Source of the DNA: Patescibacteria group bacterium
GTDB lineage: Bacteria > Patescibacteriota > Gracilibacteria > UBA1369 > PNNO01
DNA length: 64,000 bases
Assembly: GCA_042568575.1 (NCBI GenBank)
Contig: JBHPIO010000003.1
Span: forward strand, 63,387 to 127,386
Direction: 5' to 3'
In this document: positions 27,415 to 64,000 of the stretch, one piece after another
Layout: each line of letters begins with the position of its first letter
How positions within the stretch are numbered: position 1 is the stretch's first letter
Program-made: the position numbers and the translations under genes
Notes under the pieces: model-generated
What the model was told of the DNA's origin: nothing
The model's database searches: none
Seen by the model: the letters and a program-made list of their open reading frames with translations, nothing else

Positions 27415-27505
27415 TTGACAAAGTGGCGAATTTAACTCTAAAATCGAGCTGTTGATTTGTTCGATTGCAATTTTTGGAATACGGACAAATTACGATCATT
27501 GATAA
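27415..27505 (+). promoter_or_regulatory. Sigma70-type promoter followed by a hairpin and boxA-like motif
   Basis: TTGACA 27415, 18 bp, TAAAAT 27439; hairpin ATTTGTTCG/CGGACAAAT 27456-27490; CGATCATTGATAA 27493-27505. Confidence 0.55.
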
Positions 27506-28080
27506 CCCGCTTATGCCTAATTAATTTCAGTTGATGGGTTCTGTTTGTGCAAAATGTTTTTATTTTGTTTAGGCAAAGCCCATCTACTAAATAGATGGAA
27601 ACAGGATCGAAGGGTTCGCCTGTGTGAATGACCAGAAAGCCGTTGTAAAGTAGACATTTATTGGCTTCTCCATTCGTTTACGTAGGGAACCCTTCTACTT
27701 TTTTTCGAAAGGTGGCTTTGCACTCCGCCGTTTGGCTTCCTCCTGAGTGCTAAGTTGCCAGGTTGCAGGCGTGAGTATTGCGTGGTTTACCCTCCATTAA
27801 TTGCAATGGAAAACCGCTCACGCCTGCGACCGCTATTTTTTTGTTTCCAGGATTAGAGATGTCACTTGTTATACGATGGCTACCCAACCCATCACGCCCA
27901 TCTTTGCCCTGTCTTCGCCTAGTCCCAAACTGCTAAGCGTTTAAGATAGATTACTTTATCCACGCATTGACCCAAGGGCAGATAACAGTCACATCTCAGC
28001 GCAGGCACGGCTAAGACCGTGCCTGCGCAACTTTTCTTCTTAGACATAAGCGGGCCTTTCTTATTCTCCAGAGAGGCCAG
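27450..28080 (+). ncRNA. Candidate large structured ncRNA A (family unknown)
   Basis: No ORF of 60 aa or more; closing helix 27506-27520/28040-28054; nested helices 27596-27603/27842-27849, 27609-27617/27687-27695, 27761-27775/27817-27831, 27856-27872/27982-27997, 27999-28010/28017-28028. Confidence 0.7.
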
Positions 28081-28155
28081 TGTTATTTGGATGATGTTGT
28101 GTAGGCACCAATGGTGCTGTAAAATTCATTACTGATCTATTAGTAACGATTTTTT

Positions 28156-41502: not shown

Positions 41503-41556
41503 TTGACGTATCGTAGGATTTGATGTTTCAATTATCCTCCAAGATGCTCTTTAACA
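41503..41556 (+). promoter_or_regulatory. Promoter with a perfect boxA antitermination motif
   Basis: TTGACG 41503, TGnTTCAAT 41524-41532, TGCTCTTTAACA 41545-41556 (identical to E. coli rrn boxA). Confidence 0.6.
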
Positions 41557-41663: not shown

Positions 41664-42221
41664 ATGCACATTTATCCAGAAAGAGAAGGTGACAGAATGA
41701 CTCAGCAAGCCAAAGAAACCCCGGAAGCACGGCCCAAGAAAAATTTGATACACGTGATTATGCTGGGGATTAGATTTTTGCGTATCATACCAAAAAGAGA
41801 ACACGGACTAATGAGTTCGACGAGTGAAGAAAAAACCTTCGAACCGATCCGAGAGTTCACGGGTTCAGACGCGGTACGTGAGGATCTTTTACGTTTTGCT
41901 AGGCTTCATGTGGTCAATGAGAAAGAAGGGCGGTTCTTTGATCTTGAAGACTTTGGTTGGGGGATGGGAGTGCCGCCCAACCCACAAATTCGCACGCGAT
42001 CATTTTTAGGATTTGTCCTCTGTGATGGGCGTCGTGGCGTTGTATCATGGGCTAATCAAGAGGTTATGTTGCTCGAGTATTCCAACTATCTTCCTACGGA
42101 TGCTCCTATTCATGACGGCTACTACGAGAAAACACCTGTTTTCGGAAAACGCGTTGAGTGGTTGAGCGAGTTTCTCGTTCAGTTGAGCGAGCTCGAGCCA
42201 GAGTCTCCCAACCCAGGTTGA
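41664..42221 (+). CDS. Hypothetical protein, paralog A (start uncertain: 41697 or 41811 also possible)
   Basis: Shares FFxxxDxGxGxxxP..FLxFVLxxGRxGVxxW..PxDxxIxD and terminal NPG with the next ORF. Confidence 0.7.
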   Translation: MHIYPEREGDRMTQQAKETPEARPKKNLIHVIMLGIRFLRIIPKREHGLMSSTSEEKTFEPIREFTGSDAVREDLLRFARLHVVNEKEGRFFDLEDFGWGMGVPPNPQIRTRSFLGFVLCDGRRGVVSWANQEVMLLEYSNYLPTDAPIHDGYYEKTPVFGKRVEWLSEFLVQLSELEPESPNPG

Positions 42222-42225
42222 AAAG

Positions 42226-42714
42226 ATGGGGAGGTTTGAAACAGATCGTGAAAAACGCGCAAGAATCGTAAATGGCAGATTGTTACAGGCGATTATGCTA
42301 ACGATTCGAGATCTGAGGCGAGTAAAGCACGAAAGGAGAAATAAGGAGCCAATCAAGAAATTCGCTGGTTCCAGAGAAAAAAAAGATCCACTCCTCGACC
42401 TTCTTTGGCTTAGTGGCATTCGACATGCTGAAGTAGTCAAATTTTTCAGCTTTTGTGATTATGGCTATGGAGTGGCAATACCGTTTCAAAAATTCTTGGC
42501 ATTTGTTCTCATTAACGGACGATGCGGAGTAATTCGGTGGTTATCCAAAGAGGAATGTTTGGTTGTTCACGAGATCAAGCGTGAAGCTATCCAGCCGGAT
42601 AGCACAATCGACGACTTTGCCCATGAAGCAATCAGTGCGTCGCGTACTGAGACTATTAAACTCCTTATGGAAGAGATTAATTCTTTTAATGGAGAGCTAG
42701 TCAATCCAGGATAA
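42226..42714 (+). CDS. Hypothetical protein, paralog B
   Basis: FFSFCDYGYGVAIP..FLAFVLINGRCGVIRW..PDSTIDD..NPG. Confidence 0.7.
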   Translation: MGRFETDREKRARIVNGRLLQAIMLTIRDLRRVKHERRNKEPIKKFAGSREKKDPLLDLLWLSGIRHAEVVKFFSFCDYGYGVAIPFQKFLAFVLINGRCGVIRWLSKEECLVVHEIKREAIQPDSTIDDFAHEAISASRTETIKLLMEEINSFNGELVNPG

Positions 42715-44140: not shown

Positions 44141-45727
44141 CTATTTAGCATTTTCAAGCTTATCTAGTGCCAATTTTGTGCGCTCCAGAAAGCTCTCTTT
44201 TCCAAGTACCCATGCAACTTCAAACACTCCCGGCGAGAATTTCTCTCCTGTTAAGGCGGCCCTGAGTGGCCAGAAAACTTGTCCGTTTTTTAATCCAAGT
44301 TTTTCTACAATTCCCATAAGAGTATCTTTAATTGCATTCATATCATTAAACGAATCAAAGTTTGAAAACGTTTCATGAATTTCCTTGAGAGATTTCGTAG
44401 CTGTTTCGTAATCAACCTTCATTTTTTCATGCGTGAGAAGTTCGAGTTCGTAATCAATCTCTTCGAAATAGAATTTTATGTGATTTTGTACTGTTTTTGG
44501 ATCGCGAAGAATTTTTTCTTCAATCGAAACTAATGCTTTTCGTAATTTTTCGTCATCACTTTTATATTTTTCGTCGATATACTCGCCGCAAATTTCTAAT
44601 AACATGTCGGTTCGTTCTTTTAAGAATTTTTCAGTGTTTTCTGAGGCGTCAAATTTATAAACGAACTCTCCTTTTTTAGGATTTTCGATAGTGACGTTTG
44701 CGTCTATTCCATGCGCTTTTTCGTCTAACGTAGTGTGGTGTTTTCGACGGTTCCATTGCCAGTTCACCCAATCCAGTTTTTCTATGTCAAAAATTGCTCC
44801 AGCTTTGTGAACTTTCTCCAAACTAAAGTGCTCAACAAGTTCTTCGAGAGTAAAAATTTCATTTTCTTCGCTGCCACCCGGATGCCATCCAAGAAACGCA
44901 ATAAAATTAGTGATCGCTTCTTTGCTGTATCCCTTTTTAATATATTCCTCAACAGAAACATCGCCCTGACGCTTACTCAACTTCGTTCTGTCTTTATTTA
45001 GAAGTAGGGGAATATGAGCAAATTCAGGTGGAGTCCACCCAAGCGCTTGGTATAGAAGTATATGTTTAGGTGTACTCGGCAGCCATTCCTCGCCGCGAAT
45101 AACGTGAGAAATTTCCATAAGATGATCATCCACAACATTTGCGAGGTGGTATGTCGGGAATCCGTCAGATTTTAGAAGAACCTGATCGTCGAGTGTCTTA
45201 GCGGCAAAACTAACTGTCCCGCGAATCAAATCTGTATATTTAACAACTTCCGCTGATGGCATTTTTTGCCTGACAACATATGGTGTGCCGGCGTCGAGAT
45301 TCCTTTGGATTTCGTCATCGGATAAGTAGAGGCAATGACGATCGTACATCGGTGCTTTCTTGCTTTTTTCTTGATGCTCGCGCATTTCGGTAAGTCTTTC
45401 CGCCGTGCAAAAACACCTGTATGCGTGTTTTTTTTCTAAAAGTTCGTCAGCGTACTTTGTATAAAGTTCATTTCGCTCCGATTGGACGTATGGCGCGTGC
45501 GGTCCCTCTTTATTTGGACCTTCATCGTAGTCGAGTCCAACCCATTCAAGCATTTCGATTAGGTGCTCTTTTGCTCCTTCAACGAATCGTTTTTGGTCGG
45601 TGTCTTCTATTCGGAGTAGAAATTGGCCGCCGTGTTTTCGGGCGTATAAATAGTTGTATAGGGCAGTTCGTAGTCCTCCTACATGCAAATATCCTGTTGG
45701 TGATGGGGCGAATCTGGTTCGTATCAT
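44141..45727 (-). CDS. gltX: Glutamate--tRNA ligase
   Basis: RFAPSPTGYLHVGG, LRIEDTD, YRCFC, IRGEEW, KLSKR. Confidence 0.97.
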   Translation of the reverse strand: MIRTRFAPSPTGYLHVGGLRTALYNYLYARKHGGQFLLRIEDTDQKRFVEGAKEHLIEMLEWVGLDYDEGPNKEGPHAPYVQSERNELYTKYADELLEKKHAYRCFCTAERLTEMREHQEKSKKAPMYDRHCLYLSDDEIQRNLDAGTPYVVRQKMPSAEVVKYTDLIRGTVSFAAKTLDDQVLLKSDGFPTYHLANVVDDHLMEISHVIRGEEWLPSTPKHILLYQALGWTPPEFAHIPLLLNKDRTKLSKRQGDVSVEEYIKKGYSKEAITNFIAFLGWHPGGSEENEIFTLEELVEHFSLEKVHKAGAIFDIEKLDWVNWQWNRRKHHTTLDEKAHGIDANVTIENPKKGEFVYKFDASENTEKFLKERTDMLLEICGEYIDEKYKSDDEKLRKALVSIEEKILRDPKTVQNHIKFYFEEIDYELELLTHEKMKVDYETATKSLKEIHETFSNFDSFNDMNAIKDTLMGIVEKLGLKNGQVFWPLRAALTGEKFSPGVFEVAWVLGKESFLERTKLALDKLENAK

Positions 45728-45805
45728 TGTTATTCGTTAGTGGTTTTCGCGGTTAATAATAGCAGGGTAGGGGTTGCGTGGGCAATAGGAGGTGGAAATT
45801 GTTGC

Positions 45806-45819
45806 TCCACCCAGGTGGA
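45806..45819. repeat. 14-bp palindrome TCCACCCAGGTGGA
   Basis: Identical copy at 59259-59272; variant at 56607-56620. Confidence 0.65.
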
Positions 45820-45854
45820 ATCTAAAAAGTTCATAAAACGTCCACAAAAAAAAC

Positions 45855-45952
45855 TTGACAAAACCGAAATAATAGTGCAATATGTTGTCCTCAAGCATGA
45901 AATGTGCTTTTTTGTTTAAAGGTATTGTTTCTCTTGAGTTTGATCTTTGACG
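45855..45952 (+). promoter_or_regulatory. Sigma70-type promoter followed by a hairpin and boxA-like motif
   Basis: TTGACA 45855, 17 bp, CAATAT; CTCAAG/CTTGAG stem 45890-45938; TGATCTTTGACG 45941-45952. Confidence 0.5.
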
Positions 45953-46587
45953 TTTTGCCAACACACTTTATTCATTCGTCTGGCTAAGTACCTGTTCTTT
46001 TATTCAAAATGATAGGTGCCTGGCCAGACGGATGATTTGCTATCCCGCGCATGCGGTCATGCCGTGTCAGGTTGCGCACGTATTATGTGCGCTTGCTCTT
46101 TGAAGCAGTAGGGGTTCGCAACCCCGCATAGCGCTTGGATTTTTTACCGGCTTAAACAACAACTCAAGCTGCCGGTCGAATTGTTAACCTAGCCCTATGT
46201 GTTACTTCTTTTCGGATTTTGCGAGATCCGACCGCTTATAATGCGGATTTGTTCCGGAAACACCGGACGTTGAGTTTGCCCCTTTTGAGGGGTGTGGATC
46301 AGGATTAGCCCTGGTCGCTGTAGAGTCCTTCTGTCGATTTTCGCGGGTGGAGCAGGGGGAGAGCAATTGTGTGTTGGGCGTCGTGGTCCCCCGGGGTCGT
46401 ATATCTAGAGATATTGCGGCTCGCGGGGGACATTATTTCCCCCCTTTCATCGGAGCACCCTGGCAATTAAGCCTCTGGGTAGTTACAAACCGATGATCCT
46501 CGCTAGTTGCCCTTTCCTGGGCACAATCGCCCCCCTTCGGGGCACTAAACCCCTCTCGTTGCTGCGGCACGAGGGGGGAATCTTTTT
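45890..46587 (+). ncRNA. Candidate large structured ncRNA B (family unknown)
   Basis: GC-rich, no credible ORF; run of more than a dozen stem-loops, e.g. 45972-45986/46021-46035, GGGGTT-CGC-AACCCC, ACCGGC/GCCGGT, TCGGATTT/AGATCCGA, TCATCGG/CCGATGA; ends in a hairpin plus U-tract. Confidence 0.7.
46550..46587 (+). terminator. Intrinsic terminator-like hairpin
   Basis: CCCCTCTCGT/ACGAGGGGGG followed by AATCTTTTT. Confidence 0.55.
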
Positions 46588-46651
46588 ATATGTTGATGTA
46601 TAAGTTGGAATTCTCTGTACAAAAAACCTTATAAAATAGCGAAATGTATTT

Positions 46652-46999
46652 TTAAGCAATCGTTTTTGCCAACTCACGTAATCTTCCGACCAATTCATTT
46701 AATTCAAGTCTAAGTTTTCCGTCTCTAGCAGTATCCTTCAGAGGGATACCATCCATTTTTCTCCAAATTCCTAAAAATTGCATTCCTTGTGGTGTTCTGT
46801 TTTCAAGATGTCTAATGATGTCGTCTGCGAAAATATCACCATCGGAACCAAGTAAAAGTGGAATACTATTGTTTTCTTCTCTTCTTAAAAATTCAACTAT
46901 TACTTCAATTGCCTCTTTATCATACATGTGTGCAACAGAAGCAACACCTTCTTCGGCTTTAAATTTCTGGTCGCCAGTTGGCTCCTCTTTAATAGCCAT
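46652..46999 (-). CDS. Hypothetical protein
   Basis: 115-aa ORF with AT-rich upstream region. Confidence 0.65.
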   Translation of the reverse strand: MAIKEEPTGDQKFKAEEGVASVAHMYDKEAIEVIVEFLRREENNSIPLLLGSDGDIFADDIIRHLENRTPQGMQFLGIWRKMDGIPLKDTARDGKLRLELNELVGRLRELAKTIA

Positions 47000-47147
47000 A
47001 ATTAGTTTTATTAAAAACTTGGATTTCAGTTTATCATATTTGAAATATTTGACGCAATCCCGAAATGTTTTTTCTTGTAAAAAGTTTGCATTTTTGTCTA
47101 TTTTATGGCTAAATTAAACCCGTAGACCTTAATAAATTCAACATATT

Positions 47148-49412
47148 ATGCCACGAACAAGAAAAGTTAAACGTCGCACTGCGGTTCGTAAAACTACTCC
47201 AAAAAGAAAAACAACATCCAGGAGAAAGAAAACCACTAATCTTAAGTTTGAGGTTAAATCATCGATAATGCGAGAAATTTGGGCGATTGTTTATTTTGCG
47301 ATTGCAGCTGTTACTTTTTTGAGTATTCAGGGAGCTTTTGGAATTGTTGGCGACCTCTGGGTTGACCTTCTAAAGCCGGTACTTGGATGGGGACATTATC
47401 TTATCCCTCCGATTTTCCTTTTGATTTCGGTGATGCTTTTCTTTGCGAGGAAGGTGAATTTTGGTTTGGCAAAAGTTGTTGGAATTATTCTTATGGTAAT
47501 TTCGATTTTGAGTATTATCCATCTTTCTGTTCCGCTTGAGAGTCTTCATGATGTTGCGAAGGCTGGTACATACGGAGGTTATGTTGGTTTTGTGACGAAT
47601 TTCTTTATGCGAACGCAACTTAATATAGGTGGATTTGGTGCGTCGGTTGTATTTATTGCTACGGCTTTAATTGCGATCCTTCTTACATTTGAAGTTTCAC
47701 TTGTTGAAATTGCACGCTTCATGAAGCCGGAATTTAAGATTGAAACAAAGCCAGAACCTACAAGGAGAGAGCAGAAAATGATTGATGAGGAGATCACAGC
47801 TGCAAATATGCAAATGGCACCGGATGAAGTTTTGCAGGCTATTTATGGAAATAAAGAATCAAATATTCGAATCAAAAGAGCACGTCCTTTGAGTGAGGCG
47901 GCAGAGTCGGAAGCGCAGGCAGCTGCGGTTGAGGCTGAAAAGAAACCGGAACCAGTTAAGGAGGAAGAAGTTATGCCGGAAAATGCTATTCCTAAAAAGC
48001 AGCAGGATTATTCGCAATGGGAATTTCCATCGCTTGATCTATTAAATAACAATGTTTCTGAAATCGAATCGGACGATGATGTGCTTACAAAAAATGCAGA
48101 GATAATTCGTTCAAAATTGGAACAGTTTGGAATTCAGGTTACTATGAATGATATTAACGTTGGTCCGACTGTTGTTCAGTACACATTAAAACCGCACGAA
48201 GGCGTTAAATTATCTAAAATTACTACTTTAAAGAGTGACCTGGCACTTGCTTTGGCTGCTTCTGCAGTTCGTATAGAAGCACCAATTCCCGGAAAGGCAT
48301 TAGTTGGAATAGAGGTGCCAAACGAAGATCGTTCAATGGTTCTTCTTCGCGAAATTTTGGAAAGTCCAGAGTTTAAAAAAGGAGATTCACTTCTTAAATT
48401 TCCTCTTGGACGTGATGTTGCGGGAACTCCGATTATCGCGGACTTAAAAGGTATGCCTCATTTATTAATTGCGGGTGCTACCGGCAGCGGTAAGTCGGTT
48501 GGAATGAATACATTCTTGGTTTCGCTTTTGTATCAGAACTCTCCAAAAGATTTGAAACTTATTTTAATTGATCCAAAACAAGTTGAGCTTAAAGATTACA
48601 ATGGAATCCCACATCTATTAACTCCTGTAATTACAGACCCTGAGAAAGCGAATATTGCGCTTAGGTGGTGTGTTGCGGAAATGAACAGACGTTACCAGGA
48701 ATGCGCGGATAAAGGAAAACGGAACATTACAGATTACAATGCAGACAAAGCTATAGAAGAAAAGATGAGCACGATAATTGTAGTGATTGATGAGCTTGCT
48801 GACTTGATGATGGCTTCCGGAAAAGAAGTTGAAGCTTCAATTTGTAGAATTGCACAGATGGCACGTGCAGTTGGAATTCATTTGGTAATTGCTACTCAAA
48901 GGCCTTCTGTTGATGTAATCACAGGTCTAATCAAGGCAAATATCCCTTCGAGGATTTCGTTCTCCGTAAGTTCTTCTATTGATTCCAGGACGATTTTGGA
49001 TGGAGTTGGTGCGGAAGATCTTCTTGGAAAAGGGGATATGCTTTACCTCCCAAGTGGAATGAACAAGCCAGTTCGTATCCAGGGAATTTACATTTCAACT
49101 GAGGAAATCCAGAAAGTTGCAAACAGAATTAAGTTAACTGTTGAGCCGGATTACGATGACGAAATCGTTTCAACAAGAGTTGTCGGACAAAAGGTTCAGG
49201 GAATTCCTGATTCAAATGGCGGCGACGTTGACGCACTTTGCGGTCAGGCAATCGAAGTTATCAAACAGAACAGAAAGGCTTCTGCTTCACTTCTGCAACG
49301 ACGATTGAAAGTTGGTTACGCACGTGCAGCAAGAATCCTGGACGATCTTGAAGAACAGGGGATGATTGGTCCTTCTAATGGTGCGAAGCCAAGGGAACTT
49401 TTTGTGGAATGA
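47148..49412 (+). CDS. ftsK: DNA translocase FtsK
   Basis: N-terminal TM domain, RIEAPIPGK, GATGSGKS, VIDELADLM, ATQRPS, gamma domain LQRRLKVGYARAARI. Confidence 0.96.
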   Translation: MPRTRKVKRRTAVRKTTPKRKTTSRRKKTTNLKFEVKSSIMREIWAIVYFAIAAVTFLSIQGAFGIVGDLWVDLLKPVLGWGHYLIPPIFLLISVMLFFARKVNFGLAKVVGIILMVISILSIIHLSVPLESLHDVAKAGTYGGYVGFVTNFFMRTQLNIGGFGASVVFIATALIAILLTFEVSLVEIARFMKPEFKIETKPEPTRREQKMIDEEITAANMQMAPDEVLQAIYGNKESNIRIKRARPLSEAAESEAQAAAVEAEKKPEPVKEEEVMPENAIPKKQQDYSQWEFPSLDLLNNNVSEIESDDDVLTKNAEIIRSKLEQFGIQVTMNDINVGPTVVQYTLKPHEGVKLSKITTLKSDLALALAASAVRIEAPIPGKALVGIEVPNEDRSMVLLREILESPEFKKGDSLLKFPLGRDVAGTPIIADLKGMPHLLIAGATGSGKSVGMNTFLVSLLYQNSPKDLKLILIDPKQVELKDYNGIPHLLTPVITDPEKANIALRWCVAEMNRRYQECADKGKRNITDYNADKAIEEKMSTIIVVIDELADLMMASGKEVEASICRIAQMARAVGIHLVIATQRPSVDVITGLIKANIPSRISFSVSSSIDSRTILDGVGAEDLLGKGDMLYLPSGMNKPVRIQGIYISTEEIQKVANRIKLTVEPDYDDEIVSTRVVGQKVQGIPDSNGGDVDALCGQAIEVIKQNRKASASLLQRRLKVGYARAARILDDLEEQGMIGPSNGAKPRELFVE

Positions 49413-55852: not shown

Positions 55853-56242
55853 GCTGATTTAAGACTTTGGTTATAAGCCGAATTCTGTTACCCGTAAGGG
55901 CTGTGATCATCTATCTGGCCTAATGCTTGCGCATTAGATCATAGCAGTGGGTAGATGTGGGTCCTTAGGAATGAGGATAATTCCCGATCTACCATCCCAC
56001 TTTGCACCTAGTAGGGTTTACCACGGTCATCCGATCTCTCGGAGCCTCCCCGCTTAACGGGGCTTTTCACCTTTCTCGCTGACCTTGCGGCCCGCGATAG
56101 TATAGTCTCTGTGGCACTCTCCCTGCGTCCTCTATTGCTAGAGGAGCGGCTGGCGTTACCAGCTACATTATTCCTGTGGTGTTCGGACTTTCCTCCTTCA
56201 CCTCGAGGGTGACGGCGATCACTTTTAAAGCCCTAAATCAGC
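55853..56242 (-). ncRNA. rnpB: RNase P RNA
   Basis: Minus-strand GAGGAAAGTCCGAACACC and AACAGAATTCGGCTTAT (P4 halves); P1 GCTGATTTAGGGCTTT/AAAGTCTTAAATCAGC. Confidence 0.95.
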
Positions 56243-62185: not shown

Positions 62186-64000
62186 CTATTTTTTAGAGAA
62201 GGCAGCAAAGGAGAGTTTCTTTGGAACTTTCATTCCTTTAAAGAATGCAGAAAACTCTTTGCCTGAGAGAGTTTCTTTCCTGATAAGTTCCGCAGCTATT
62301 TCATCAATTAATTTGCGGTTCTTGGAAACGATTTCTTTAGCAGCTTCGTATCCAACATTTACAATTCTCTTAATTTCTTCATCGATTTTTGCTGCGATTT
62401 CTTCAGAGTAGTTTTTCACATGTCCAAAATCACGGCCAAGGAATACTTCTTGGTTTTGATCACCATAAATAATTGGACCAAGGTTACTCATTCCAAATCT
62501 TGTTACCATAAGCCTTGCTATCTCAGTTGCTTTTCTAAGATCGCTTGAAGCTCCGTTTGTCATTTCTCCGAACACGAGTTCTTCAGTTACATAACCACCA
62601 AGAGCCATTGCAAGCTGTTGCTCAAGTTTGCTTCTTGAATCAAGCTTGTTGTCATGTTCTGGCAGTGACCAAGTTACTCCAAGTGCGTGTCCTCTAGAAA
62701 TCACAGTTACTTTATGCACTGGATCACAATAAGGAAGCATGTGCCCAACGAGCGCATGACCTGTCTCATGATAAGCAACGATTTGTTTTTCTTGTTTTGA
62801 AAGCACCATGGATCTTCTTGCCGGCCCAAGCGCAACTTTCTCGATTGATTCCTGAAGATCGCTCATCGAAACGGTCTTTTTATTTTGACGAGCCGCTAGA
62901 ATCGCAGCTTCATTAATAAGATTTTCAAGATCAGCTCCGGAGAATCCCGGTGTATGTCTTGCAATTAAAGTGAAATCAACAGTTTTAGCCATCGGTTTTC
63001 CTCTAGCGTGAACTTTCAAAATTCCTTCACGATCTTTAATGTCCGGCATGTCCACAACGATTCTTCTATCAAAACGACCTGGTCTTAGAAGGGCTGGATC
63101 AAGTACATCCGGCCTGTTTGTTGCAGCCATTACGATTACATTTGTATCTTTTTCAAATCCATCCATTTCGGTAAGGATCTGGTTTAGTGTTTGTTCACGT
63201 TCATCATGTCCTCCTCCAAGTCCCGCACCTCTTTGTCGTCCAACTGCATCGATCTCATCTATAAAGACGATACAAGGAGCGTTTCTTTTCGCTTTCTTAA
63301 ATAGGTCTCTTACACGACTTGCACCTACACCCACGAACATTTCCACGAATTCTGAACCTGAAATGTTAAAGAAAGGTACATTTGCTTCTCCTGATACTGC
63401 ACGAGCAAGCAAAGTTTTACCTGTTCCTGGCGCACCTACAAGTATTACACCTTTTGGGATTTTCGCTCCCATTTTTGTATACTTTGTTGGATCTTTTAAG
63501 AAATCAACTATTTCGATAAGCTCTTCTTTTGCTTCTTTTGCACCTGCAACATCTTTAAAGGTTGTTTTATTCTTCTGCTTATCACTTAATCGCGCTTTAC
63601 TTTTTCCAAATGACATTGCTTGATTGTTGCTGCTTTGCGCCTGCCTCATCATGAATACAAAGAATCCTATAATAAGGAGGAACGGCACAATACTAAATAG
63701 AAGGTTCATCCAGAAAGCTTCTCCTTCTGTAGAAATTACTTCTGTTTCGATGCTATTTCTGATGTCTTCAGGAACTTCAGCTAGGATTTCGCGAAGAGTT
63801 TCTTCCTTTTCTTTAAAGGCATATTTTTTACTGTCATCAATAAGTGTTATATCTATTCGATCGTTTTTTACTTCGATCAATTTAACTTCCTCATTTTTCA
63901 CTTGTTCTATAAAGGTGTTTATACTGATTTTCTCAGATGAAGTACTACTAGGATTTAATATTAAAACCCCCGCAGTGATTACGAGTGCAACAATAACGAG
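62186..64000 (-). CDS. ftsH: ATP-dependent zinc metalloprotease FtsH; 5' end is outside the window
   Basis: [32 protein letters not shown]; frame stays open to the window edge through TM1. Confidence 0.97.

Follow-up and report, generated by a model that had tools for sequence, protein, structure and literature searches.

The spacer between the genes gltX and ftsK of a Patescibacteria group bacterium was analyzed in a 64,000-nt stretch of DNA (hereafter the window), which corresponds to positions 63387–127386 of contig C23 of this genome (G000). Locus B, at 45855–46590 of the window, is non-coding and is, with a probability of roughly 55%, a lineage-specific gene for a highly structured RNA of ~700 nt, which would be transcribed with NusB/boxA-type antitermination and probably excised at a helix closing its core; the putative RNA spans ~45890–46590 on the + strand. 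This reading rests on architecture and analogy. As to its kind, locus B is a candidate for the large structured bacterial non-coding RNAs (ncRNAs), and what would be new is a leader and a closure in the style of rRNA operons on an orphan accessory RNA from the Candidate Phyla Radiation (CPR). The G000 assembly (1.20 Mb, 31 contigs, 82% complete, 38.3% GC) is assigned to the CPR because the nearest named public gltX loci, with 57–62% protein identity, come from Candidatus Peregrinibacteria/Peribacteria metagenome-assembled genomes.

Architecture of locus B

The elements identified at locus B are listed below, with P denoting predicted pairing probability and MFE the minimum free energy structure.

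45855–45883, + strand: promoter-like site, with TTGACA (45855–45860), a 17-nt spacer ending in TG, and CAATAT (45878–45883)
45890–45938, + strand: 5' leader hairpin CUCAAG...CUUGAG (arms 45890–45895 and 45933–45938) with inner stems, P 0.83–0.99
45940–45952, + strand: boxA-like element UUGAUCUUUGACG, 2 nt past the leader hairpin
45949–45966, + strand: 5' strand of a long-range, leader–trailer-like helix, overlapping the 3' end of the boxA-like element
45972–46035, + strand: long near-perfect hairpin of 28 bp with 30-nt arms; folded alone, z −9.3, 0 of 200 shuffles equal
46042–46140, + strand: multibranch domain (local fold) with hairpin 46074–46092, followed by a second boxA-like element, UUGCUCUUUGAAG (46093–46105)
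46146–46176, 46212–46231, 46232–46246, 46253–46267, 46278–46293 and 46297–46316, + strand: series of short GC-rich hairpins in the MFE, P 0.92–0.99
46357–46382, + strand: 3' strands of nested long-range helices closing a 434-nt core, from MFE pair probabilities
46386–46543, + strand: 3' domain outside the closing helix, with a 20-bp hairpin (46386–46431), then 46447–46496, 46508–46523 and 46529–46543
46550–46587, + strand: terminator-like hairpin with a 10-bp stem (46550–46559/46569–46578) and a 9-nt loop, P 0.86, followed by AAUC and UUUUU (46583–46587)

The initial annotation of this DNA had described a chain of GC-rich stem-loops with a promoter, a hairpin and a boxA in front of it and a terminator at its end. 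All the stems it had named, together with TTGACA, the string TGATCTTTGACG (45941–45952) and the terminal hairpin, were found in their places. The pairings ACCGGC/GCCGGT, TCGGATTT/AGATCCGA, TCCGG/CCGGA, GATCAGG/CCTGGTC, GTCCCCCG/CGGGGGAC and TCATCGG/CCGATGA were all present in the MFE with mean P of 0.92–0.99. When 46040–46140 was folded alone (z −2.3, 5 of 200 shuffles equal), GCGCATGCGG (46047–46056) and CCGCAT-A-GCGC (46124–46134) closed a four-hairpin junction; in the whole-molecule MFE these closing bases were paired otherwise. Folded alone, the leader hairpin with the boxA-like stretch (45889–45956) reached −14.7 kcal/mol (z −2.2, 5 of 200 shuffles equal), and the local folds of the 3' domain gave z −5.2 (46383–46435) and z −4.7 (46444–46592), with 0 of 200 shuffles equal in each case. 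The two boxA-like stretches are linked by a direct repeat, D5, and hairpin 46074–46092 with its T-rich tail was called terminator-like by a scan.

The core is predicted to be closed by pairing over more than four hundred nucleotides, GACGU/GCGUC joining 45949–45953 to 46378–46382 (P 0.99) and CCAACACAC/GUGUGUUGG joining 45958–45966 to 46369–46377 (P 1.00). In the complete nested set, 46357–46360, 46362–46366 and 46369–46382 pair with 46043–46046, 46037–46041 and 45949–45966, respectively, with P of 0.88–1.00. Because of this long-range helix (45949–45966/46369–46382), which the initial annotation had missed, a single excised core is likelier than a string of independent hairpins.

Resemblance to rRNA operon leaders

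The order of elements at locus B, namely promoter, 5' hairpin, boxA-like element and 5' strand of a long-range helix, is that of the 16S leader of G000, where the hairpin is followed by GTTCTTTAAC and next comes CATTTAGAGTGTAATAGAGAAACC, which forms a helix of ~24 bp with the trailer. A TTGAC[AT] start is common to locus B, to two further loci of this genome described below (A and C) and to both rRNA leaders of G000. Element UUGAUCUUUGACG resembles the element TTGATCCTTGAA of the 23S leader and, measured against the rrn consensus AUGAUCUUUGAAA, which is that of B. subtilis, matches 10 of 13 positions, as does the second boxA-like element. A second boxA is carried by rRNA spacers, and the second string inside locus B recalls it. 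In the B. subtilis rrn leaders, as described in an excerpt of PMC13753749, a small 5' hairpin lies immediately before the NusB-binding element. The promoter–hairpin–boxA layout proposed for locus B is real and equals that of both the G000 16S leader and the B. subtilis rrn leaders. The order of elements is likewise described for the rrn leaders of E. coli in PMC10250234, which supports a role of leader–trailer helices and boxA in the biogenesis of rRNA.

The boxA-like element starts at 45940, just past hairpin 45890–45938 and within ~100 nt of the promoter, and the arrangement of a hairpin followed by boxA is also found in the 16S leader, locus A and locus C. The combination of a promoter (TTGAC within 130 nt) and a boxA-like motif occurs at only 20 sites in G000. 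At 11 of these the next 500 nt have at least 45% GC, versus 5.8% of background windows; without A, B and the 16S leader, the sites that shaped the motif, the count is 8 of 17 (a binomial calculated by hand gives ~2e-6, for a motif refined after some of its sites had already been seen). The boxA reading of locus B is weak from the motif alone and better in context. Genes for NusB (C3:29299–29688) and RNase III (rnc) are present in G000 and adjacent to each other (C3:28826–29688).

In the proposed course of events, boxA in the nascent transcript would recruit NusB–S10, and RNA polymerase would read through the many internal hairpins, two of them terminator-like. The antitermination complex would help 45949–45966 and 46369–46382 to meet, as in rRNA leader–trailer helices, after which RNase III would cut the closing helix and perhaps also the 28-bp hairpin at 45972–46035, a possible substrate of this enzyme, to leave a stable core of ~400 nt. 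As a guess, the mature RNA would be a protein-binding scaffold or a decoy belonging to a fast-turnover accessory genome.

Other boxA-like sequences were encountered in G000. The 16S gene is unlinked to the 23S–5S genes, and both have a promoter and a boxA leader of their own; TTGATCTTTAAAA stands directly before the 5' end of tmRNA (contig C26, ~1230–1245 of the extracted locus L013, − strand). No boxA-like motif was found upstream of RNase P or 6S in this genome. Within the window, the segment 41467–43524, which the same-genus genome G001 lacks, contains a promoter-like site together with ATGCTCTTTAACA at 41544–41556, close to the E. coli boxA consensus; it holds two tandem paralogous GC-rich ORFs (open reading frames), 41664–42221 and 42226–42714 (29% identity, E 2e-17, no Pfam family), a GC-rich hairpin and a PHP-domain gene.

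Folding and coding potential

The claim that locus B is GC-richer than its flanks was borne out, with a GC content of 0.527 at 46001–46400 versus 0.33–0.44 in the flanks and 0.383 genome-wide; of the 62 gaps in G000 that lack ORFs and measure 350 nt or more, it is the fifth richest in GC. The + strand folded to −292.7 kcal/mol compared with a shuffle mean of −230.4 (z −6.7), none of 20 shuffles being as good; an independent shuffle run gave z −6.9, and most MFE helices had P > 0.9. The − strand reached −240.8 kcal/mol (z −5.9), and the MFE contained 30 G–U pairs on the + strand versus 6 on the − strand, in agreement with the stated preference of wobble pairs for the + strand. When ten GC-rich gaps among the 62, including locus B, were folded alongside an RNase P control, three gaps stood out: locus B (z −6.9), locus A (z −8.9) and locus C (C30 36479–36997, z −8.3).

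Locus B is non-coding. No start-codon ORF contained in locus B exceeded 54 aa, stop-to-stop frames did not exceed 84 aa, and a Pfam search of 8 frames found no family above the cut-off. The only ORFs linked to a Shine–Dalgarno sequence were of 13–53 aa, rich in R, G and P and none of them convincing, and a small-protein ORF was rejected for lack of a good Shine–Dalgarno sequence together with a plausible product. Period-3 power was 0.92 for locus B (maximum 1.66) and 0.78 for locus A, values to be set beside those of known RNAs (RNase P 0.75, 16S 1.32, 23S 1.09) and of coding sequences (2.7–7.5 for five GC-rich ones, 2.8 for gltX, 3.7 for ftsK). Because codon periodicity is absent, locus B is neither a gene for a protein nor a recently decayed one; a pseudogene was ruled out by the period-3 power and the 8-frame Pfam search combined.

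Loci A and C of the same genome

Two loci of G000 share the layout of locus B.

27416–28146 of the window, + strand: locus A, with TTGACA-17-TAAAAT, a 5' hairpin (27453–27492) and then CGAUCAUUGAUAAC
C30:36489–37003 of G000 (211–725 of the extracted locus L010): locus C, with a promoter, a hairpin, TGTTCTTTGA, a 12-bp long-range helix and a 15-bp terminator hairpin

Locus A, taken here as the 'ncRNA A' of the initial annotation, folded with z −13.0 under the folding tool's own shuffles (0 of 20 equal) and has long-range helices, among them CGCUUAUG/CAUAAGCG between 27508–27515 and 28045–28052 (P 1.00), as well as several hairpins of 12–27 bp, including ones of 22 and 27 bp. The stated lack of sequence identity between this locus and locus B held in BLASTN, which detected no similarity, and locus A matched nothing in 40 relatives. 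The 12-bp helix of locus C (346–357 with 640–651 of L010, P 0.99) encloses AAGGAGG and a hydrophobic ORF of 65 aa (441–638), and its period-3 power is 3.25. Locus C thus looks like a tightly folded mRNA for a small membrane protein, presumably of a kind reminiscent of type I toxin mRNAs. Since it encloses a ribosome-binding site and an ORF, the leader design is not confined to non-coding units.

The gltX–ftsK site in relatives

Gene gltX (44141–45727, − strand) is the upstream neighbour of locus B, and ftsK (47148–49412, + strand) lies beyond an orphan ORF of 115 aa. gltX is present in 13 of 13 family genomes. The locus is intact in 10 relatives, and in seven of these, among them G001, whose gltX is 86% identical, the distance from gltX to the start of ftsK is 75–223 nt. 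BLASTN of the G001 spacer placed its positions 17–58 at 45744–45785 and 95–300 at 47063–47268, thereby delimiting an insert that contains the locus B RNA and the orphan ORF.

45786–47062 (1277 nt, strand not applicable): insert, in place of which G001 has 36 nt
46652–46999, − strand: orphan 115-aa ORF, convergent with the locus B RNA

The 115-aa product had no Pfam match and no lead at a score of at least 0.9 in a protein atlas; a search of a library of 5.8 billion proteins returned, at E 0.01, only the protein itself among 19 candidates, and its single-sequence AlphaFold model was poor (pLDDT, predicted local distance difference test, 51). Weak collinear direct matches (D1, D6 and D3) flank the GC-rich body, between 45844–45971 and 46619–46682, with TTTTGCCAAC in both; they may be fortuitous or else left over from the origin of locus B.

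A search for homologues beside gltX and ftsK, suggested by the initial annotation, found none in the relatives; what it brought up was a different RNA candidate, GC-rich and ~520 nt long, in the gltX–ftsK spacer of three genomes (G006, G010 and G012) of a sister genus, g3.

L020:841–1359 (−), L021:3236–3755 (+) and L023:3184–3689 (+) of the extracted loci: sister-genus RNA, unannotated and without Rfam match

Its layout comprises a promoter, a 5' hairpin, a boxA-like UUUGAAA and a terminator, with CCCUGUU/AACAGGG as an invariant long-range helix. In its alignment 90% of cells were paired, and 30 pairs changed on both sides versus 13.5 in shuffles (0 of 500 reaching that number) and 3–6 in slid controls, figures that come from three sequences, with a structure derived from the same alignment, and from an RNA different from that of locus B. 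A covariance model of the 3' portion of this RNA (R1) matched only its 3 source genomes among 101, and a profile of the RNA searched with nhmmer against G000 gave nothing (best E 3–7). Because both R1 and nhmmer miss G000, the sister-genus RNA is a positional analogue of locus B with no detectable homology to it.

Further units of this kind were noticed in the sister genus. The sister-genus RNA of G010 is succeeded by another small GC-rich unit (~L021:3768–3980), which has a promoter and a terminator of its own. In G006, species-specific GC-rich, ORF-poor units are found at C1:1328660–1329410 (two in tandem; L295 180–930) and C1:1094294–1094714 (L291 230–650); they are bounded by a promoter and a terminator, fold with z of −7 to −9 and are unmatched in the 12 remaining family genomes. 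From the first of these units, a terminator-like palindrome of 35 nt matched five further places in G006, two of them overlapping. Such units thus seem to come and go rapidly within the family.

Known families and repeats

With Rfam 15 at the gathering threshold, the whole window contained only RNase P (55857–56234) and one tRNA, and nothing in locus B; the families covered included GOLLD, ROOL, OLE, HEARO, group I and II introns, signal recognition particle (SRP) RNA, 6S, tmRNA and rRNA. A match to a known family, one of the outcomes that would have spoken against a novel RNA, was thus not obtained. At E ≤ 10, the region 45600–46800 gave 10 matches, all to eukaryotic microRNA or long non-coding RNA models and 9 of them on or around hairpin 45972–46035; the best, mir-471, scored 37.3 bits, its gathering score being 80, and TTC28-AS1_2 matched 45847–45990 on the − strand below threshold. 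Rfam likewise found nothing in locus A, locus C, four other GC-rich gaps (L002, L006, L009 and L011) or the three sister-genus gltX–ftsK loci (L020, L021 and L023), and a search of locus B for tRNA and tmRNA found none. A divergent 6S RNA was discarded in view of a 6S elsewhere in G000 (contig C26), and a divergent SRP RNA in view of the lack of an SRP match in locus B even at E ≤ 10; the small SRP RNA (RF00169) was not found in the 82%-complete assembly. Elsewhere in G000, a group I intron match of 64.7 bits lies in an ORF-free gap (L016 222–412; C3:1219–1409).

Within G000, BLASTN matches longer than 64 nt were to locus B itself, with no second copy. An origin from an insertion sequence (IS), which the initial annotation had named as a possible objection, or from a miniature inverted-repeat transposable element was accordingly rejected, there being no further genome copies and no terminal repeats above chance. 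An array of CRISPR or guide RNAs was also rejected, the only repeat families being of two copies, 12–27 nt long and irregularly spaced.

Evidence against an RNA gene and the possibility of non-functional DNA

A number of observations weigh against the view that locus B is an antiterminated RNA gene. The promoter is only partly supported: its −35 box is perfect, whereas CAATAT has 3 of the 6 −10 matches and the site was not called by a consensus scan. The terminator that had been proposed is there as a hairpin and a U-run, but the scan did not call it either, its 9-nt loop being above the 8-nt limit. With as many as 3 mismatches allowed, the boxA-like motif occurs 65 times in the window versus 68.6 expected, that is, no more commonly than by chance. 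GC-rich coding stretches of G000 fold with z of −2.4 to −8.5, overlapping the value of locus B, so that the folding z alone is no proof of an RNA. Perfect stems of at least 6 bp formed 14 hairpins versus 11.9 expected and 14 of 100 shuffles reached the paired-base total; this count, which did not separate locus B from shuffles, was left unused as evidence. A long-range complement of 9–10 bp within 700 nt is, by our own estimate, not rare by chance. The insert is absent from G001, as described above, and the compensatory changes belong to the sister-genus RNA, not to locus B. None of the 13 family genomes (G000–G012), 7 of them with a completeness of 90% or more, yielded a Rho_RNA_bind domain, and for this reason the classic anti-Rho role cannot be the purpose of boxA here; if boxA works in this lineage, it would serve read-through past hairpins and the folding together of distant strands and would not shield the transcript from Rho.

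The searches for homologues tell in the same direction. BLASTN against 41 genomes (G000 and 40 relatives) matched only the locus itself, and against 401 genomes of the phylum only its own genome. Among 401 genomes of the class, five others gave matches of 21–33 nt (E 0.002–0.007), which were treated as chance across 400 genomes. Neither phage and plasmid collections nor, for one exact 20-mer of locus B, viral contigs gave a match, and nhmmer of locus B against the gltX loci of the family gave nothing (best E 3–7). Metagenome contigs reached through gltX, and genome contigs, were too distant for homologues by synteny (protein identity ≤62%). With no homologue found, locus B itself shows no covariation. 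The notion of an independent large ncRNA is upheld as regards a non-coding, structured and bounded unit with no Rfam family or repeat, and receives no backing from homologues or conservation in any search.

Taken together, such observations make non-functional DNA a serious rival, if an unlikely one: locus B would be a recent or decaying GC-rich insert, transcribed or not, in which neither the palindromes nor the strings resembling a promoter or boxA play any part. Every search left it an orphan, its insert is missing from a same-genus genome, its boxA motif is at chance frequency and its −10 box is weak; G000 has many other foreign-looking GC-rich islands, and G006 too has species-specific GC-rich, ORF-free units unmatched in the other 12 family genomes. 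Against this, locus B has no residual codon periodicity, its G–U bias is confined to one strand, the ordered series of promoter, hairpin, boxA, helix and terminator recurs at loci A and C, the 16S leader and the sister-genus RNA, and the positional counterpart in g3 is conserved with compensatory changes.

The GC-rich islands of G000 (53–60% GC, 2–5 kb, with long ORFs) include C31:24219–29300, C26:82883–85765, C12:17240–19536, C4:19037–21613 and C2:36499–39116, among others. They encode beta-oxidation-like enzymes and G/T/D/S-rich proteins with signal-peptide-like starts, and several have a promoter and a boxA-like motif upstream. These islands may be horizontal acquisitions or bin chimeras.

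Other alternatives

A precursor of small hairpin RNAs, the other option raised by the initial annotation, from which RNase III and other nucleases would release mainly 45972–46035 (28 bp) and 46386–46431 (20 bp), is distinctly unlikely. The strongest local signals do lie in these two long hairpins (z −9.3 and −5.2, no shuffle out of 200 equal for either), similar hairpins, of 22 and 27 bp, occur at locus A, and RNase III is encoded in G000. The predicted nested long-range helices, however, tie the hairpins into one closed 434-nt domain, no repeat units or spacers mark a processing array, and the matches to microRNA models are far below threshold. Given the nested closing helices, the version with many small hairpins, although possible, would be less likely than a single core.

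A mobile or defence element that brought in both locus B and the orphan ORF is more improbable still; locus B might then be a guide RNA, a scaffold RNA, the template of a retroelement or DNA with hairpins recognised by a recombinase. The 1277-nt insert holds both the RNA and the convergent ORF, the same site holds other RNA units in g3, two of them in G010, and such units turn over rapidly in the family. By contrast, no gene for a transposase, reverse transcriptase, Cas protein or recombinase adjoins the locus, there is no second genome copy, the only terminal matches are the weak collinear D1, D3 and D6, none above chance, and locus B has no Rfam match to HEARO, group II introns, retron-type RNAs or CRISPR at E ≤ 10 and no phage or plasmid match. 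Locus C, where the same promoter–hairpin–boxA layout goes with a helix around AAGGAGG and a 65-aa ORF (period-3 power 3.25), suggests one more possibility, the structured mRNA, or the leader, of a small protein; this is very improbable for locus B, which has no ORF with both a good Shine–Dalgarno sequence and a plausible product, a maximum period-3 power of 1.66 and no traces of Pfam families.

Comparison with known systems

The closest likeness of the proposed antiterminated RNA gene is to rRNA operon leaders, which comprise a 5' hairpin or boxB, boxA and a leader–trailer helix and are served by a Nus-factor antitermination complex; it shares with them a promoter, a 5' hairpin, a U-rich boxA-like element 2 nt further on and a helix strand pairing hundreds of nucleotides downstream, in a genome that has nusB and rnc. 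Unlike them, the core of locus B is not rRNA (no Rfam rRNA match at E ≤ 10), measures 434 nt and occurs in one genome only, and the family yielded no Rho, against which antitermination classically works. Non-rRNA units led by boxA, namely CRISPR arrays and suhB in gammaproteobacteria, are similar in that a boxA-type element starts a long untranslated or poorly translated transcript (PMC13753749, excerpt); they differ in acting against Rho, and locus B has no repeats or spacers. With the ornate ncRNAs (GOLLD, ROOL, OLE, HEARO and raiA), whose size class and nature are outlined in an excerpt of PMC12286853, it has in common a length of 400–800 nt, many helices, an independent gene and a GC-rich sequence in an AT-rich genome. 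Those families are conserved across many genomes, whereas locus B matched none of their covariance models and has no homologue. Long GC-rich intergenic regions have served for the discovery of ncRNAs in AT-rich genomes in the pipeline of the Breaker laboratory, and by that very criterion (PMC11109978) locus B would be selected.

Implications

A broader proposition, possible though doubtful, is that locus B belongs to an undescribed class defined by architecture and not by sequence. CPR bacteria of the Peregrinibacteria type would possess fast-turnover, species-specific stable RNAs styled on rRNA, with a 5' hairpin, a boxA-like element, a leader–trailer helix and a core of 400–550 nt, at permissive sites such as gltX–ftsK; their production would fall to the antitermination apparatus of the ribosomal operons and to RNase III, and they would act in conflict or in interaction with a host, not in housekeeping. 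Among the matches listed in a search of the literature on non-coding RNA of Peregrinibacteria, the CPR and Patescibacteria, none described such an RNA.

Among bacterial RNAs, large structured ones are rare, and nearly all of those known came to light through conservation. If the reading of locus B as an RNA gene is true, such genes can arise or move fast and escape searches based on conservation. Non-coding RNA of the CPR is nearly unstudied, and the present analysis offers concrete loci: B, A and C in G000 and, in G006, a conserved RNA as well as three orphan units. Locus B also bears on the role that boxA and NusB may have in bacteria seemingly without Rho.

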